A DNA stretch of 64,000 nucleotides from Nitrospirota bacterium (GCA_035873375.1 JAYWMQ010000017.1:728-64727); one strand, 5' to 3'. Shown: positions 5,828-45,578, counted from the stretch's first letter. Notes: a model not told the origin generated them from the letters alone. Made by a program: numbers and translations.

Positions 5828-5986
5828 GGTAAATATGTTAACATACGGGGCTTAAAGAGCGCACGTTTTTGCGCCTCATAAATTAATCAACCCGAGCAGA
5901 ATGCTGGCATAATAATTGCTTCTAAATTATTACTATTAAATTTTTTGTTCTGACAGCCGATAAAAGAATTAAGGAGCGTGTTTATT

Positions 5987-6127
5987 ATGGTCTTACGTGA
6001 GGCAAAAGAGATTGTGGGAATCCTGATGGAGAGTAACGTTTACTTTGAACTCAGTCTCCGGGAGAGACTCCGCCTCATAAAACACATACTCAGCACATCC
6101 CGGACTGAAACCCAACGGCCTGCCTGA
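5987..6127 (+). CDS. hypothetical 46-aa protein
   Basis: Own read: MVLREAKEIVGILMESNVYFELSLRERLRLIKHILSTSRTETQRPA. AAGGAG lies 10 nt upstream of the ATG. No recognisable family; below the ORF-track length cutoff. Confidence 0.3.
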   Translation: MVLREAKEIVGILMESNVYFELSLRERLRLIKHILSTSRTETQRPA

Positions 6128-6130
6128 ATC

Positions 6131-6586
6131 CTACATCCCGAATTCCCTGTCTATTGTTGCCTTGACATCTTCGATTTTTTTACCTTCCTTGTAAGTCTGG
6201 GAAGCCCTCAAGGCCTCCTGCTGACAGAGTAGTCAACCCGCCCCGTGATTTCCTGTAAAGCAGCTCAGAAGGCTCTTGTGATAGAAAGGGGGCTCACTAC
6301 AGTTGCAGTAGCAGTAGACCTGGTCCAAAACCTCCGGATTTTCCCGGGCTGCTGCATAAGCTGAACGGGTCAGACCTGTAAACATTGCAGGATCTATCAC
6401 AGGACGTGTCTCTCCCCCTTTGACAAAGAAGGACTTTCCGTCGTTTTTTTGCGAGTTGGTAAAAGGAATTTTACCGGAGACAGCAAGTACAAGGATGAGC
6501 ACTGAAAGGGCAAAGACAATCCAGATAACAGGGGGTTTGCCCTTCTTCTCTGAAACTTTCTGCTTCTTCTTTCCCTTGTTAGCCAT
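6131..6586 (-). CDS. membrane-anchored CYCxC/PCYCGC-motif protein, probable selenoprotein (in-frame TGA at 6233-6235 read as Sec; 151 aa)
   Basis: The track ORF 6233..6586 ends ...YCYCNCSEPPFYHKSLLSCFTGNHGAG-TGA. The same frame continues LLCQQEALRASQTYKEGKKIEDVKATIDREFGM to TAG at 6131-6133. This creates a U-x-x-C pair where the family carries C-x-x-C. There is an N-terminal TM helix. Confidence 0.6.
6200..6218 (-). promoter_or_regulatory. SECIS-like hairpin downstream of the in-frame UGA
   Basis: The mRNA reads GGAGGCC-UUGAG-GGCUUCC (7 pairs including one G-U). It starts 15 nt after the UGA and has G residues in the apical loop. Confidence 0.45.
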
Positions 6587-6746
6587 TCCCCCCTCAACCC
6601 CTTTTCAAATTTAAACAAATACTACCAAATATATTTACACAAAAAGATGAAGAAAATATGAAAATCGCCCCCAAAACCTTTTATAACAAAACACAGACTT
6701 CCTGAATATTCAGAAGGATATGTATTTGCCTAAAAAATTACTGAAA

Positions 6747-7526
6747 TCAGAAGCTTACACCTGCCTCTATGAATGGTCCTTTAAATTCCATAGATGCCCT
6801 TACGTCATTATGGTCTATCTTGATCTTTTCATATCTGTATCCGCCGGCAATAAAGACAGGGCCTACGGGTTTTACCTTCATCCTGGCTATGAGGTCATAA
6901 TAACTGTTTGAACCGTATGTAATTCCCCTTATCTCCGCCTCAATGCTGAACAAATCAACAGGTTTTAACTGGACTGCGGCATAGATCATGGGGATCGGAA
7001 GGGTATAGCTTGCAGATTCCGACTGATCTCCCTGGGAGATCTTTGCTTCAAAGTCAATAATCCTCAGGTTTAAACCCAATTCCACATTGAGACTGCCGGC
7101 AGTGGCAGTATTGAGAAAGGGCAGGGAGTAATAAACCGCAATGTCATAGTGGTCTGCCTTCAGTACTGAATTAAACGGAACCGTTGGATCAAACGTTTTA
7201 TTTCCGAATGTAAAGCTCAAATCCTTGGACCCCTGGCCTTCATACTTCATCGGGGTTGCCATGAAGTAGATATTCGGAAGAAAGAGCGGCAGGTCAGCCT
7301 TTACCCGGAGATAGGGTCTGGCCTTGCTGTCATACTTGAGGTTTTCCTTAAGATCAAGGTTGTTTTCAACCAAGTCATTACTACTGTACTGCAGATCACC
7401 TGATGGGGCCTGATTCCAGTATCCTACTGCTGCCTCAAGACCAAGTGCATAAGTTCTACCTGGCGTGATAAGGAGTAGAACCGTAAAGACCACCGTCAAG
7501 GGGATTAAAAAACCAAATTTTTTCAC
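6747..7526 (-). CDS. outer-membrane beta-barrel protein (unknown family)
   Basis: 259 aa. Signal peptide, alternating amphipathic strands, and a C-terminal ...GVSF aromatic terminus. Confidence 0.75.
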   Translation of the reverse strand: MKKFGFLIPLTVVFTVLLLITPGRTYALGLEAAVGYWNQAPSGDLQYSSNDLVENNLDLKENLKYDSKARPYLRVKADLPLFLPNIYFMATPMKYEGQGSKDLSFTFGNKTFDPTVPFNSVLKADHYDIAVYYSLPFLNTATAGSLNVELGLNLRIIDFEAKISQGDQSESASYTLPIPMIYAAVQLKPVDLFSIEAEIRGITYGSNSYYDLIARMKVKPVGPVFIAGGYRYEKIKIDHNDVRASMEFKGPFIEAGVSF

Positions 7527-36932: not shown

Positions 36933-38619
36933 AGCCCCTGATTCTGTAATACCTGTCAAGGGTATCATCAAAATCCTTCCTCCTGATTGGCGGGATTGTC
37001 ACGTTCTCGTCTGAATACCCCGCATCCCTGAAAAACCTCTCCGGCAGGTCGTCATCCTTTCTTGAAAAGCCGTTCAGTGTATTGAGATGCCTTTCAAGAA
37101 GCCACGTACGCTCCCCTGCCCTCACGAGTGACTGCACATCATACTCCCTTGCCGTCACTGCATTTATGGCCTTTGCATACTCCTCAAGGGAGGCTGCAAA
37201 GAAGACAAACTTGCATGCTGTAAGGGAATCTATTACTGTGTTTATATCCTCGGATATCTTGACCATCCTGGCCTTGCCCACAAAGGAGAACCTGTCAACA
37301 GCCACAGGCTTTCTGAGTATCTCGTAACTTATCGGATATGCCCTGAGGTGGCAGCCTCCTCGGTTTGAGGTGACATAGGAAAGGGCCATGCCATAGGCGC
37401 CCCGGGGGTCGTAGGCCGGAAGCTCAAGTCCCTTTACCGTCATGCTGAGCTCAGGCACACCCTTTGACTCTGCAAACCTCCTTGAACCCTCGGACAGGGC
37501 GTCTCCAATACCCTGCCTCTCCCCTATAAGCACTACATGCCTGAGGAGCTCCTCAGGCGACAGCCTCTTGCCTGAAAACTCTGAATAACAGGCAATGGTG
37601 GATGCAGTTGTAATGGTGTCAAGGCCGTAATCATTACAGAGGCGGTTTGCCTCGACAATACTTTGGAGGTCACTGTTGCCGTTGAGGGCGCCAAAATGTG
37701 AGACCGTCTCGAATTCAGGCATAACCTCACCTGCCCTGCCCACTTTCTTGCATAGTATGGGGCACCCCCTGCAACCTTTCTTTTTTGTATGATAGGCGGT
37801 CTTCATTGAATAACCCGAGTATTGGCCGGACTTGGGGAATACACTCTTTCTGAAATTCTCCGTAGGCTCCATCCTCCTTGCATGGATAAGGTCAACAAGG
37901 GCTGCCGTACCGAATTCGCTGAGGCCGAACTCACCAAATACTGCAGGTGAGGCCCTGAGCAGCCTCATTATCTCCTCCCTTGCCTTTTTCAATGCCCCGG
38001 GATCAGCGACCTTTACCTCTCCTGTCCCCCTTATCTTTATTGCCTTCAATCTCTTGGCCCCCATAACAGCCCCAAGCCCGCCCCTGCCTGCAAGGTAGTG
38101 TCCGTCAAATACAATTGAAGCAAACCTGACGCCCCGCTCTCCTGCACGGCCGATTATGGCCGTGGACCCGTCATCACCAAGAATTGCTGCCGTCTCTTCT
38201 ACATTCCTGCCATAAAGCCCCCCTGCGTCCTTTATGGATATATTACCGTCCTGAATATCTATCGTCACCCACTCTCTGGATAGACCGGAGATAATGAGCA
38301 TATCAAACCCCGCCCTCTTCAGCTCGGTTGCAAACCTGCCCCCGACAGAGCAGTCAAAAACCGTTGATGTGAGTGGAGACCTTGAGACCACGGAGAGCCT
38401 TCCTGATGTGGGGGCAGAGGTACCGACCAGTGGGCCGGAGGCAAATATTATCGGCATATCCTCTGAATCAAACGGTTTTGTAATGTGCTCCCTGATCAGC
38501 GCCACACCAAAACCCCGTCCCCCGATATATTTCTCGCACAGTTCCGGCGGGGTCTCAAATATATCCCAAACTCCTTCCGAGAGGTCTATCCTGATGCTTT
38601 TTCCTGTATACCCTGTCAT
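36886..38619 (-). CDS. aor: aldehyde:ferredoxin oxidoreductase (tungsten/molybdopterin AOR family)
   Basis: About 577 aa. The N-terminus MTGYTGKSIRIDLSEG is the classic AOR start. It has Fe-S ligand Cys residues and AOR C-terminal domains. The ATG at 38619 overlaps the upstream stop (ATGA). Confidence 0.92.
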   Translation of the reverse strand: MTGYTGKSIRIDLSEGVWDIFETPPELCEKYIGGRGFGVALIREHITKPFDSEDMPIIFASGPLVGTSAPTSGRLSVVSRSPLTSTVFDCSVGGRFATELKRAGFDMLIISGLSREWVTIDIQDGNISIKDAGGLYGRNVEETAAILGDDGSTAIIGRAGERGVRFASIVFDGHYLAGRGGLGAVMGAKRLKAIKIRGTGEVKVADPGALKKAREEIMRLLRASPAVFGEFGLSEFGTAALVDLIHARRMEPTENFRKSVFPKSGQYSGYSMKTAYHTKKKGCRGCPILCKKVGRAGEVMPEFETVSHFGALNGNSDLQSIVEANRLCNDYGLDTITTASTIACYSEFSGKRLSPEELLRHVVLIGERQGIGDALSEGSRRFAESKGVPELSMTVKGLELPAYDPRGAYGMALSYVTSNRGGCHLRAYPISYEILRKPVAVDRFSFVGKARMVKISEDINTVIDSLTACKFVFFAASLEEYAKAINAVTAREYDVQSLVRAGERTWLLERHLNTLNGFSRKDDDLPERFFRDAGYSDENVTIPPIRRKDFDDTLDRYYRIRGYDEEGRVTEEDERAD

Positions 38620-38882
38620 TTGCACCTTCCGTTCATTTTATAAATAAATGTCAGCACCTCAGCCACAGCCCTGTAGAGTTCCGGCGGTGTCTCTTCATAC
38701 ATATCAAGGGTGGAGAGTATCTCCACCAGGGCCTTGTCCTCATGGATGGGCACCCCGTGCTCACGGGCAAGGGCGATTATCCTCTCGGCAAGCCATCCCC
38801 TGCCCCTGGCCACTACTTTCGGTGCCGCATCAACACCCTGTCTGTATTTCAGGGCTGCTGCCTTTTTCCGCTCTTCCTTCAT
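38616..38882 (-). CDS. FlhB C-terminal-domain-like small protein (EscU/YscU/FlhB family)
   Basis: 88 aa. AVALKY-type start (AAALKYRQGVDAAPKVVARGRGWLAERIIALAREHGVPIHED). Confidence 0.85.
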   Translation of the reverse strand: MKEERKKAAALKYRQGVDAAPKVVARGRGWLAERIIALAREHGVPIHEDKALVEILSTLDMYEETPPELYRAVAEVLTFIYKMNGRCK

Positions 38883-41640: not shown

Positions 41641-41979
41641 ATGAAGATGGTTTCTGCTGTAATCAAGCATTTTCGGCTTGACAATGTACGGAAAGCCCTG
41701 ACGGACATCGGGGTGGAAGGTATGACCATTATTGAGGTAAAGGGTTTTGGGCGTCAGAAGGGTCACATGGAGGTATACAGGGGTGTGGAGTATGAGGTGA
41801 GATTCCTGCCAAAGATCAAGGTAGAGGTGGCCGTGACTGATGAAAAACTCGATCAGGTTATTGATGTTATTCAGGAAGCTGCAAGGACAGGCGAGATAGG
41901 GGATGGCAAGATATTTATTTATAACCTGCAGGATGTGGTGAGGATCAGGACAGGGGAGAGAGGAGAGGAAGCGATATGA
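41641..41979 (+). CDS. glnB: nitrogen regulatory protein P-II (copy 2)
   Basis: 112 aa. Canonical PII sequence with T-loop Tyr51. AGGAGG RBS. Confidence 0.95.
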   Translation: MKMVSAVIKHFRLDNVRKALTDIGVEGMTIIEVKGFGRQKGHMEVYRGVEYEVRFLPKIKVEVAVTDEKLDQVIDVIQEAARTGEIGDGKIFIYNLQDVVRIRTGERGEEAI

Positions 41980-43328
41980 TGAAAAAAGAGGACTCAGGAG
42001 TTGGAAGCCAGGGCTCCTTGATAAATGGAAAACTGGTTTTGATTTCGCTATTCACAGGTTTTCTGGTATTCCTTTCCTGCAACAGCGCATTTGCAGGGGA
42101 AGCAACGGGGATCGATACAGGCGATACTGCCTGGCTATTGATGTCCACAGCTCTTGTCATGCTGATGACCCCGGGGCTTGCCTTTTTTTATGGCGGAATG
42201 GTGAGGAGCAAAAATGTCCTCGGCACCATAATGCATAGTTTTATAATCCTGTGTATTGTGAGTATTGTCTGGGTATTGTGGGGGTATACACTTGCCTTTG
42301 GCCCTGACATAGGCGGGTTTGTTGGCGGACTGAAGTGGTTGGGCCTGCAGGGTGTTGGACAGGAACCCGCTCCACTGGCCCCAACAGTGCCCCACCTTGC
42401 ATTCATGATGTTTCAGGGGATGTTTGCCATCATCACACCTGCCCTTATAACAGGGGCCTTTGCAGAGAGGATGAAGTTTTCGGCCCTGGTGATCTTTACT
42501 GTGCTATGGACAACCTTTGTCTACTCTCCGGTTTGTCACTGGGTATGGGGGGGCGGATGGATCGGAACAAAAATTGGCGCCCTTGATTTTGCCGGCGGCA
42601 CAGTTGTCCATATAAACTCAGCCATTGCAGCCATTACTGCCGCGGTTATTATTGGAAAGAGAAAGGGGTATCTGGAGGAGGCTATAATGCCTCATAACCT
42701 TCCAATGACTATCCTGGGGGCTGCACTGCTGTGGTTCGGCTGGTTCGGGTTTAATGCCGGCAGTGCACTTACAGCCGGAGGACTGGCCTCCCTTGCCTTT
42801 GTAACAACAAACACCGCTGCTGCAGCAGCGGCCATGAGCTGGGCACTTACAGAGTGGGGCTACAGGGGAAAACCCACAGCCTTTGGTGCGGTCAGCGGCG
42901 CTGTAGCCGGACTTGTTGCCATAACGCCTGCAGCAGGCTTTGTAAGTCCCATGTCTGCCATCCTGATAGGTCTCGGTGCAGGCGTCTTCTGTTATCTTGC
43001 CGTTAATGTCAGACCGAAGATCGGATATGATGATTCACTTGATGTACTCGGCATCCATGGAGTAGGAGGTCTGTGGGGGGCACTGGCTACAGGTCTTTTT
43101 GCATCAACCGCAGTAAATTCCGGTGGTGCCGATGGCCTGTTTTTCGGAAACCCGTCTCTCTTTACAGCCCAGGTTATTGCGAGTGCTGCAACCATTCTTT
43201 ATTCCGGAGTTGTCACCCTTATCATACTGAAGGTGATTGACTGGACAATCGGACTCAGGGTTAAAGAGGAAGAAGAGGTTGTGGGACTTGATCTCAGCCA
43301 GCACGGTGAGACAGGATATAACCTGTAA
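41976..43328 (+). CDS. amt: ammonium transporter Amt (copy 2)
   Basis: 450 aa. The start overlaps the glnB stop (ATGA). It has the DFAGGTVVH motif and is multi-TM. Confidence 0.95.
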   Translation: MMKKEDSGVGSQGSLINGKLVLISLFTGFLVFLSCNSAFAGEATGIDTGDTAWLLMSTALVMLMTPGLAFFYGGMVRSKNVLGTIMHSFIILCIVSIVWVLWGYTLAFGPDIGGFVGGLKWLGLQGVGQEPAPLAPTVPHLAFMMFQGMFAIITPALITGAFAERMKFSALVIFTVLWTTFVYSPVCHWVWGGGWIGTKIGALDFAGGTVVHINSAIAAITAAVIIGKRKGYLEEAIMPHNLPMTILGAALLWFGWFGFNAGSALTAGGLASLAFVTTNTAAAAAAMSWALTEWGYRGKPTAFGAVSGAVAGLVAITPAAGFVSPMSAILIGLGAGVFCYLAVNVRPKIGYDDSLDVLGIHGVGGLWGALATGLFASTAVNSGGADGLFFGNPSLFTAQVIASAATILYSGVVTLIILKVIDWTIGLRVKEEEEVVGLDLSQHGETGYNL

Positions 43329-43385
43329 ACGGAACCGCCGGGCCGCAGGCGGAATTAAAAATCTTGTCAAGGAGATTAAAAGGTT

Positions 43386-44066
43386 ATGCCGGTATTGATT
43401 GTAAAGAACATCCCGGTCGAAGGGCCGGGAACGATTGAGGACTTTCTCAAGGACAAGGGTATTTCCTATACCATACTCGAGCTCTCAAAGGGCGAGCTGA
43501 TTACCGACACAGGGGAGTATTCGCATCTGATAGTAATGGGTGGACCGATGGCTGTTTACGAGATGGACAGATACGCCTACCTCCGTCAGGAGACGGACTT
43601 GATAAAGGACTTCATTAACAGGGGCAAGTCCGTCCTTGGTGTCTGCCTGGGAGCCCAAATGGTCGCTCATTGCCTTGGGGCAAGGGTTTATCCCGGTGAT
43701 GTCAAGGAGGTAGGCTGGTATAAGGTTGACATAACACCTGAGGGAATGGAAGACGAGGTCTTCTCAACCATTGCGATTGACGGGAAACCCGTTGCAGAGG
43801 TCTTTCAGTGGCACGGTGACACCTTTGACCTGCCTGAAGGCGCGGTAAGGATTGCCTCGTCATCAGCCTATCCCAATCAGGCATTCAGGTACGGCAGCCG
43901 GGTATATGCCCTGCAGTTTCATATAGAGGTTACACCGGAGATACTCAGGGAATGGTTTAAGGACGAAGAAGGGGTTGACGTTGAAGAGATGCTTGCGCAT
44001 ACGCAGAAGATATACCCTGAATATCATAAAAGGGCAATGAATTTTTATGATAAATTTTTTTCTTGA
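43386..44066 (+). CDS. class I glutamine amidotransferase (GATase1) domain protein
   Basis: 226 aa. Nucleophile elbow GVCLGAQ and a distal His (QFHIEVT). Confidence 0.85.
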   Translation: MPVLIVKNIPVEGPGTIEDFLKDKGISYTILELSKGELITDTGEYSHLIVMGGPMAVYEMDRYAYLRQETDLIKDFINRGKSVLGVCLGAQMVAHCLGARVYPGDVKEVGWYKVDITPEGMEDEVFSTIAIDGKPVAEVFQWHGDTFDLPEGAVRIASSSAYPNQAFRYGSRVYALQFHIEVTPEILREWFKDEEGVDVEEMLAHTQKIYPEYHKRAMNFYDKFFS

Positions 44067-44165
44067 CAAAACTTTGTCTTGACAAAGCCGAAAAATTTAT
44101 AGTAAATTTATCGGCAAACCCAATACCGATAAACCAACGAATTTTAATTCTTTAGGAGGTAGTCT

Positions 44166-45578
44166 ATGACGCCAAAGGATGTCTTAACGTTTGCTCAGGA
44201 AAACGACGTAGTAATGGTTGACTTCAAGTTCATTGATTTTCCAGGGGTATGGCAGCACTTTTCAGTACCTGTTGATGAACTGAAAGAAGAGACTTTTGAA
44301 GAGGGTGTTGGTTTTGACGGCTCATCCATAAGGGGCTGGCAGGCAATCAATGCATCGGATATGCTGATTATTCCTGACCCTGAGACCACAATGCTTGATC
44401 CATTCAGAAAATACCCGACTCTCGGTCTTGTCTGCAACATTGTAGACCCGATTACCAAGGAACCTTACTCAAGAGATCCAAGATACATCTCACAGAAGGC
44501 AGTTCAGTATCTCAAGTCCACAGGGTTAGGTGATACTGCATACTTTGGCCCGGAGGCAGAGTTTTTTATCTTTGACGACATAAGGTTTGACCAGAATGCC
44601 CAGAGCGGCTATTACTTTATTGATTCAAAAGAAGGCATCTGGAACTCCGGAAAGGATGAGGGCCCCAACCTCGGTTACAAACCAAGACACAAGGAGGGGT
44701 ATTTCCCTGTACCGCCTACAGACAGCCTTGAGGATTTAAGGACGGAGATGGTCGTTATAATGCAAAGGTGTGGAATACATATCGAAGCCCAGCACCACGA
44801 GGTGGCAACAGCAGGCCAGGGCGAGATTGACATGAGATTCTCCCCCCTTGTAAATATGGCCGACAAGCTCATGCTGTTCAAATACATAGTCAAGAACGTG
44901 GCCCATGCACATGGAAAGACTGCTACCTTCATGCCAAAGCCCATCTTTGAAGACAATGGCTCAGGAATGCACACCCACCAGAGCATCTGGAAGGATGGCA
45001 AACCCCTGTTTGCAGGTAATGAATACGCAGGCCTCAGTGAGATGGCGCTTCACTACATCGGAGGACTTCTGAAACATGCCAGGGCGCTTGCCGCACTCAC
45101 AAACCCCACAACCAATTCATACAAGAGACTTGTTCCGGGGTTTGAGGCACCGGTTAATCTTGCATATTCAGCAAGAAACCGCTCTGCGGCAATAAGGATT
45201 CCAATGTATTCTCCTTCTCCAAAGGCAAAGAGGGTGGAGGTAAGATTCCCGGATCCCTCATGCAACCCCTATCTTGCCTTTGCAGCATTGCTGATGGCCG
45301 GCCTTGACGGAATAGAGAACAAGATTGATCCCGGCGAGGCACTTGATAAGGACCTCTATGAGCTTCCGCCAGAGGAACTCTCAAAGGTACCCCAGATGGT
45401 AGGCAGCCTTGATGAGGCACTTGAGAGTCTTGAAAAAGACCATGAGTTCCTGCTCAAGGGAAATGTCTTCACTGAAGATGCACTTACGACATGGATAAAA
45501 TACAAGAGAGAGAACGAGGTTAATGAACTGAGGCTCAGGCCTCACCCCTATGAGTTCTTCCTTTACTACGATATATAA
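44166..45578 (+). CDS. glnA: glutamine synthetase type I
   Basis: 470 aa. [21 protein letters not shown], and [17 protein letters not shown] blocks. AGGAGG RBS. Confidence 0.96.

Follow-up and report, generated by a model that had tools for sequence, protein, structure and literature searches.

An in-frame TGA very probably encodes selenocysteine in a small membrane-anchored CYCXC-family protein of a Nitrospirota bacterium

The CYCXC locus and its surroundings

The DNA analysed here, called the window throughout, is a stretch of 64,000 nucleotides (64 kb) from a Nitrospirota bacterium (GCA_035873375.1, JAYWMQ010000017.1:728-64727). An ORF on its minus strand (6586..6236) encodes 117 amino acids with the C-terminal end YCYCNCSEPPFYHKSLLSCFTGNHGAG and runs into a TGA at 6235..6233, after which the same frame stays open for 33 codons (LLCQQEALRASQTYKEGKKIEDVKATIDREFGM) up to a TAG at 6133..6131, giving 151 residues in total, including U. 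The preliminary description had placed the end of the ORF at TGA 6233-6235 and the end of the open frame at TAG 6131-6133, with a 151-aa product, and translation reproduced both exactly. The features of the locus are as follows.

6131..6586 (-), predicted coding sequence of a CYCXC-family selenoprotein of 151 residues (117 + Sec118 + 33), with ATG at 6586..6584 and TAG at 6133..6131
6588..6595 (-), Shine-Dalgarno-like GAGGGGGG directly 5' of the ATG, read from the sequence
6476..6529 (-), single hydrophobic membrane anchor predicted from the sequence, residues 20-37, VIWIVFALSVLILVLAVS
6299..6313 (-), C-Y-C-N-C motif (Cys92/Cys94/Cys96), the family signature; C92, C94 and C96 are invariant in both homologue alignments
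6224..6235 (-), U-L-L-C motif, comprising the UGA (putative Sec118) at 6235..6233 and Cys121 at 6226..6224
6200..6218 (-), SECIS-type hairpin GGAGGCCU-UGA-GGGCUUCC, separated from the UGA by a 14-nt spacer; from folding and comparison
6131..6133 (-), TAG as the true terminator, from translation; conservation collapses right after it

The ATG start fits the N-termini of homologues in the alignment (M-A/G-K-K...), and the N-terminus ahead of the anchor is rich in lysine, with 8 Lys within residues 4-17. By the positive-inside rule, the hydrophobic segment would be an N-in/C-out signal anchor, with the domain outside the membrane. Firmicute members of the family are lipoproteins and therefore also extracytoplasmic, which agrees with an outside location.

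A promoter and terminator scan around the CYCXC gene revealed no sites attributable to it. An inverted repeat, AGTCTC-tcccg-GAGACT, is present at 6050-6075 (-), ~60 nt past the TAG of the gene, and was not flagged by the terminator scan because it has no T-run. The neighbours of the CYCXC gene in the window encode an outer-membrane beta-barrel protein and a pyrimidine-nucleoside phosphorylase, and no redoxin, two-component or Fer4_5 gene was found next to it at this locus. The general context in the window clade is a divergent aconitase and an outer-membrane beta-barrel gene.

Elsewhere in the window, nitrogen-assimilation genes are clustered at 27392-31526 and 41976-45578, with the following members.

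within the 27392-31526 and 41976-45578 regions, NifA-type sigma-54 activator
29363..30760 and 41976..43328, two ammonium transporters
44166..45578, type I glutamine synthetase

In a 305-aa ORF at 33693-34610 (-), an IS200-like Y1 transposase domain (PF01797) is found together with the C-terminal helix-turn-helix of DnaA (PF08299). Two further ORFs at 35658-38625 (-) overlap by 86 nt. The match of the upstream one (579 aa) to aldehyde:ferredoxin oxidoreductase is limited to the N-terminal third (profile 4-230 of 703), and that of the downstream one (437 aa) to an aldolase model is confined to its C-terminal half. The pair may have arisen by frameshift or fusion, or may simply be unusual in architecture. 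Other TGA codons in the window that are followed by an open extension turned out to be antisense, out of frame or normal terminators. The Ogt gene (62383..62928, (-)) superficially mimics a selenoprotein, as its TGA precedes an L-L-C in a frame that stays open for 36 codons (62275-62385). Its TIGR00589 profile is already complete (1-80 of 80) before the stop, and this TGA was therefore regarded as a normal terminator and a chance look-alike.

Family membership and the TGA column

The protein had been guessed, from its sequence, to belong to the PCYCGC/CYCxC family. The guess proved right, in that the thresholds of both NF041379 and PF13798 are passed, and passed only when the tail behind the TGA is included. 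With U read as C, the read-through product scores 122.1 bits against NCBIfam NF041379.1 (cutoff 90) and spans 1-89 of the 90 profile positions, compared with 77.4 bits, below the cutoff, for the 117-aa ORF. Pfam PF13798 (PCYCGC) gives 34.6 bits for the read-through product versus 21.7 for the 117-aa form, at a gathering score of 25. NF041379.1 is an equivalog model entitled 'OS_HP4_CYCXC, CYCXC family (seleno)protein', and a Cys homologue (P0121) likewise carries the NCBI name 'CYCXC family (seleno)protein'. OS_HP4 has been described as a hypothetical protein with PF13798 and UxxC and as a predicted selenoprotein (PMC9312934, PMC13188914), and reviews class CYCXC/OS_HP4 among the predicted, not the verified, selenoproteins. 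Both of these sources credit OS_HP4 to Zhang & Gladyshev 2007. The accessible part of the text of that paper tabulates only OS_HP1-3, and the attribution of OS_HP4 therefore rests on the two reviews.

The window protein shares with NF041379/OS_HP4 the CYCxC signature, Sec as the first residue of UxxC, and an equal size and architecture, and differs from it in nothing of substance; its exact sequence is absent from the protein collection. With the PCYCGC family (PF13798) it has in common the conserved CxCxC, His, Cys-Phe, His and CxxC as well as an extracytoplasmic location. The wider PF13798 family mostly has Cys at the column of the TGA, whereas the window clade is dominated by the Sec form, and the window protein has a signal-anchor helix where the Firmicute PF13798 lipoproteins have a lipobox. 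An exhaustive profile search gave 1,545 family representatives, and among the best 150 of these 1,545 at least 86 have CxxC at the column and ~10 stop there. CxxC being this common family-wide among the best 150, Sec would therefore replace a conserved Cys in one clade. As the CYCXC family is already curated as selenoprotein, the find is not new, and the window gene is an ordinary member of an already known selenoprotein family.

Among 5.8 billion proteins searched, 186 relatives were found, and all of the best 120 of the 186, which were listed, end at one identical column (...SCFxxxHGAG), covering 77% of the read-through query. It had been predicted that gene callers would cut the protein at the TGA, and this is what has happened in 120/120 listed homologues. 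Essentially every entry of the clade being cut (120/120 listed), the public protein sets are without the CYCXC active-site motif. Such agreement between gene callers and database entries is also what would be seen if the TGA were a true terminator, with a product of 117 residues and the 33 codons left over, untranslated, from an ancestor of the gene that had the Cys form. Open in-frame extensions of at least 33 codons after 38% of the long ORFs in the window, and the absence of visible Sec machinery from its 64 kb, would fit such a terminator as well.

To this reading we set the genome loci of the relatives. A tblastn search gave 80 loci with matches reaching query residue 150-151, from Nitrospirota/Thermodesulfovibrionia, Thermodesulfobacteriota, Binatia, Rokubacteria, Verrucomicrobiia, Nitrospinota and other lineages, the nearest relatives being Nitrospirota/Thermodesulfovibrio MAG genes that are 88-93% identical. 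The motif could be located in 77 of these loci, which together with the window give n = 78 for the codon column. The preliminary description had named homologues that terminate here with no CxxC extension as evidence against its reading; the Sec118 column was found to hold TGA in 70/78 loci, a Cys codon in 8/78 (TGC 6, TGT 2) and TAA or TAG in none. A column in which the only stop is TGA speaks against a true terminator. The real terminators, located 32-36 codons further on, are TAG in 41, TAA in 25 and TGA in 12 of the same 78 loci.

The codons behind the TGA, whose lack of conservation had likewise been named as evidence against the reading, vary as coding sequence does. At the three codon positions, the non-consensus fraction amounts to 0.19/0.11/0.37 for the tail and 0.17/0.10/0.45 for the preceding 33 codons, compared with a variability that is flat at 0.63 in the 60 nt past the real stop. 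The tail frame is open in 68/70 TGA loci, with the remaining two reading through a second TGA, and the two alternative frames of the tail are closed in 45-47/51 loci. A relic tail would decay, whereas here the coding pattern and the open frame have been kept over several phyla, and the 117-aa form falls below both curated family cutoffs. We consider it highly improbable that the protein ends at this TGA.

Alignment with full-length Cys homologues placed the TGA at the first Cys of a conserved CxxC, as had been proposed, and bore out the layout given for the family, CYCxC...H-x-S-L-L-S-C-F...H-G-A-x-C-x-x-C-Q-x-E-A. The invariant C-x-x-C-Q-x-E-A of the Cys forms is aligned with U-L-L-C-Q-Q-E-A of the window, and the U/C-x-x-C motif with its flanks reads HGAG-U-LL-C-QQEA in the window and HGAG-C-xI-C-QxEA in the Cys forms. 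Residues C92, C94, C96, H103, C109, H114, U/C118 and C121 are invariant in the alignments. The general marks of a selenoprotein gene were found in this family: UGA aligned with Cys, TGA as the sole stop at the column, and a coding tail up to the true terminator. One base change would turn TGC or TGT into TGA, and in principle the codon could stem from an error made in sequencing or assembly, or mark a pseudogene of this one genome. An error is excluded because the identical TGA recurs in 69 other independent assemblies, and we give this explanation practically no weight. Taken at the level of sequence, a Sec reading of TGA 6235..6233 is strongly supported, and the codon would be translated.

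The SECIS-type hairpin and selenocysteine decoding

The mRNA can fold as GGAGGCC-UUGAG-GGCUUCC (6218..6200), the first base being the 15th nt after the UGA. RNAfold added one U-G pair, which gives an 8-bp stem with a 3-nt loop and -11.3 kcal/mol for the hairpin alone. Compared with shuffles, the 66-nt fold has a z-score of -1.29, which is not significant, and the MFE of Sec loci differs little from that of Cys loci (-12.6 vs -10.9 kcal/mol). Because the fold energy was non-significant and the Sec and Cys values were close, whole-segment energy was replaced by register-specific pair counts and an analysis of synonymous sites. The open extension and the hairpin are weak on their own (38%, z = -1.29), and their significance thus comes wholly from the comparative data.

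The 59 UxxC loci can be aligned free of gaps across 65 nt from the UGA. In this alignment, 86.6% of cells are paired when helix columns 18-25 are set against columns 29-36, compared with 60-62% after a one-column shift of the 3' arm and 33-40% after larger shifts. Double-sided changes were observed in 4 pairs versus 0.7 in shuffles. RNAalifold independently gave the identical helix, in which most relatives have an internal mismatch, and sub-clades have stems of differing sequence in one register (GGAGGCU/AGCCUUC, UGAAGCCC/GGGCUUCA and CGAGGCGC/GCGUCUCG). The hairpin RNA also encodes conserved peptide, and its conservation partly overlaps the peptide Q-x-E-A-L-R-A; the analysis was therefore confined to synonymous sites, counting at each codon only the sequences with the consensus amino acid. 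The results by codon after the UGA were as follows.

codon +5, stem: AAG in 26/26
codon +6, stem: GAG in 49/51
codon +7 (Ala), stem: GCC in 50/51
codon +9, stem: NGG in 47/47
codon +11 (Ala), stem: GCC in 32/32
codons +8 and +10, loop / bulge: free variation
Ala and Gly codons beyond the hairpin: each of the four synonyms used, 1.7-2.0 bits

The synonymous sites of the stem codons are frozen, which shows that the RNA itself is under selection. In Cys-form loci the hairpins are weaker and irregularly placed, with a mean of -7.0 vs -9.7 to -10.3 kcal/mol. An Rfam scan of 5900..6800 at E values up to 10 gave no SECIS family and only chance-level snoRNA and miRNA matches. This does not count against the hairpin: SECIS elements of bacteria are so short and so varied that the absence of an Rfam match is expected for them. 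The fixed register, the compensatory changes, the frozen synonymous sites and the 14-nt spacer agree with the earlier proposal of a SECIS at the expected distance, and they support the hairpin at 6218..6200 as a candidate bacterial SECIS. As is established for the E. coli fdhF-type SECIS, the stem-loop follows closely on the UGA and is itself part of the coding sequence. Its apical loop lies ~22-25 nt from the UGA and contains G, as in the fdhF type, with a GGUC loop in the UxxU variants described below. The CYCXC hairpin has no sequence similarity to that element and no Rfam match. Its stem is also the shorter of the two, with 8 bp in the window and, in most relatives, 6 conserved pairs plus a mismatch within the helix.

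AGGAGG (6219..6214), a perfect Shine-Dalgarno sequence, makes up the 5' side of the stem, and an in-frame TTG at codon +8 comes 2 nt later. The locus might accordingly be read as two genes, the 117-aa protein and a peptide re-initiated at this TTG. The spacing of 2 nt is too short for this, and the TTG is not conserved as a start codon, since it is present in 27/49 Leu loci and replaced by CTG or CTT in the other 22/49. Codons +1 to +7, which are conserved at the protein level (invariant Cys and Q-x-E-A), would fall outside such a peptide, and the Cys-form genes are continuous. Re-initiation is hardly credible as an explanation of the tail.

The genes for Sec insertion were sought in the window and around the relatives. 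The tRNA search of the 64 kb window returned no tRNA at all, and hence no tRNA-Sec, and selA, selB and selD are absent from the 36 annotated ORFs of the window. tRNA-Sec was not found in the flanks of 60 related loci either. Sec machinery has been described for Nitrospirae in the literature, and related genomes contain a second, independent TGA/Cys family, a redoxin, adjoining the CYCXC gene.

Translation of the tail would by itself also be satisfied by a selenium-free read-through of the UGA, with a near-cognate or suppressor tRNA inserting Trp or Cys, or by reassignment of UGA, and the lack of observed Sec machinery in the window would suit either. TGA is the stop of 12/32 annotated genes in the window, and UGA is therefore not reassigned genome-wide. 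A selenium-free read-through needs no structure in fixed register with frozen synonymous sites, whereas SelB-dependent decoding does. Further points against it are that the homologous residue is Cys, forming the classic Sec/Cys pair, and that relatives have a second UxxC selenoprotein adjoining. We regard decoding with no selenium involved as very unlikely.

Selenocysteine insertion is the reading we prefer. The ribosome would pause at UGA118, and the hairpin 14 nt downstream would recruit SelB-GTP with Sec-tRNA(Sec), a decoding step that is established knowledge for bacterial Sec insertion. Sec would then be inserted at position 118, and translation would run 33 codons on to the TAG. That UGA118 is recoded to Sec and is not a terminator appears well supported by the comparison of the loci. 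The small, Cys-rich, membrane-anchored protein almost certainly has selenocysteine at the position of the in-frame TGA. The best explanation overall for 6586..6131 (-), and one we hold to be highly probable, is a 151-residue member of the CYCXC/OS_HP4 family (PF13798, NF041379) in its Sec form.

Structure model, family variants and possible role

As a proxy for the structure, the AlphaFold model of the Cys homologue P0121, which is 42% identical to the window protein, was used. The model is confident across the soluble domain and all-helical, with no beta-sheet; the equivalent of the membrane anchor is helix H22-37, and the CxxC is found at the N-terminal end of a 15-residue helix. The N-terminus of a helix is the usual site of a nucleophilic redox or metal-binding cysteine. 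A Foldseek comparison of the P0121 model with the PDB gave nothing below E = 3, and a profile search of PDB sequences gave no match. As modelled, the CYCXC fold is one with no solved relative. The thioredoxin-fold UxxC selenoproteins (TlpA-like, Prx-like, DsbA-like) resemble it in having Sec first in U-x-x-C at a helix start and in being extracytoplasmic. They differ in fold, as the CYCXC domain is predicted to be all-alpha, judged by the P0121 model, and has no thioredoxin-family Pfam match. CYCXC may therefore act like a thiol:disulfide oxidoreductase, yet it is not a member of the thioredoxin fold.

The picture of topology and domain, partly inferred from this model, is as follows. An all-alpha domain rich in Cys and His would sit on the external side of the membrane, held there by a Lys-rich cytoplasmic N-terminus and one TM helix. 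Sec118 would stand in for the first Cys of the family-wide C-x-x-C, at the N-terminal end of the long helix. The U-x-x-C could cycle between selenol/thiol and selenylsulfide, trading reducing equivalents with extracytoplasmic TlpA-like redoxins, and CYCxC, Cys109, His103 and His114 may hold a metal or form a second redox site.

The related loci differ in what adjoins the CYCXC gene. Redoxin genes adjoin it in ~22 loci, and at least 7 of those redoxins are W-U-P-W-C selenoproteins; a Fer4_5 membrane protein adjoins it in 13 loci. In Thermodesulfobacteriota (L008-L011, L015, L025), a co-directional AhpC/TSA-Redoxin in Cys form (WCPPC) is located ~100 nt downstream. Seven loci (L020, L021, L028, L034, L035, L038, L044) have a convergent TlpA/AhpC-TSA-like redoxin on the minus strand, 150-1900 nt downstream of CYCXC. 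This redoxin is split by an in-frame TGA (LLSFWATW-U-PWCRKELPSLE) and is therefore a second UxxC selenoprotein beside CYCXC. In ~20 Nitrospirota loci (e.g. L014, L019, L023, L052), a string of genes on the same strand extends 0.7-3 kb upstream and ends in CYCXC. The order is an OmpR-type response regulator, a HAMP/HisKA histidine kinase, a small Cys protein and CYCXC, then a convergent redoxin. The small Cys protein has ~110-145 aa with C-x-x-C-x5-C and no Pfam match. This arrangement suggests that the CYCXC selenoprotein of those Nitrospirota lineages belongs to an envelope-sensing unit.

Two further forms of the active site were observed. In L037:3295-3306 (CP070737.1, Nitrospiraceae bin398) and L047:3295-3306 (JBFGJU010000010.1, Thermodesulfovibrionales), TGA stands at both Cys positions of the CxxC, giving a UxxU sequence, HAAA-U-N-L-U-(Q/L)DEALAVARLIKQGK...IDREFG and then the stop, in which the tail is fully conserved. 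The hairpin of this form has a GGUC loop and starts 17 nt past the first UGA and 8 nt past the second. CP070737.1 also encodes a Cys paralogue (L066). The other form is a U-x-x-x-C clade (UINIC, UENYC, UIDIC) represented by L059-L061, L063, L074, L075, L077, L078 and L080, from Binatia, Syntrophobacteraceae, 'Deltaproteobacteria' and Verrucomicrobiia. A hairpin particular to this clade, GAGGCGC-UGGAU-GCGUCUC, is conserved 17-19 nt past the UGA, and a Fer4_5 (PF12801) membrane protein usually adjoins the gene. The UxxU form appears to be uncatalogued, since reviews give the family one Sec (UxxC), and both U-x-x-U and U-x-x-x-C appear to be unlisted in catalogues.

Our best guess for the function is a selenol/thiol redox role outside the cytoplasm, with coupling to TlpA-like redoxins. 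We infer this role because redoxin neighbours recur in other lineages; the window locus gives it no support. The main alternative is a metal-binding role for the Cys/His set. More tentatively, CYCXC might be part of a conserved extracytoplasmic selenium-dependent redox/metal-sensing module, with a response regulator, a histidine kinase, the small Cys protein and a Sec TlpA-like redoxin, elsewhere with a Cys redoxin or a Fer4_5 polyferredoxin, in which the active site has diversified. This context is absent at the window locus, and we think such a module possible but rather doubtful.

The annotation of the gene should read as a 151-residue selenoprotein (transl_except 6235..6233), not as a 117-residue hypothetical protein. 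For the biology, it adds one more member to a family of predicted selenoproteins and nothing categorically new, with modest functional leads in the UxxU and UxxxC forms, the adjoining Sec-redoxin and the two-component genes.
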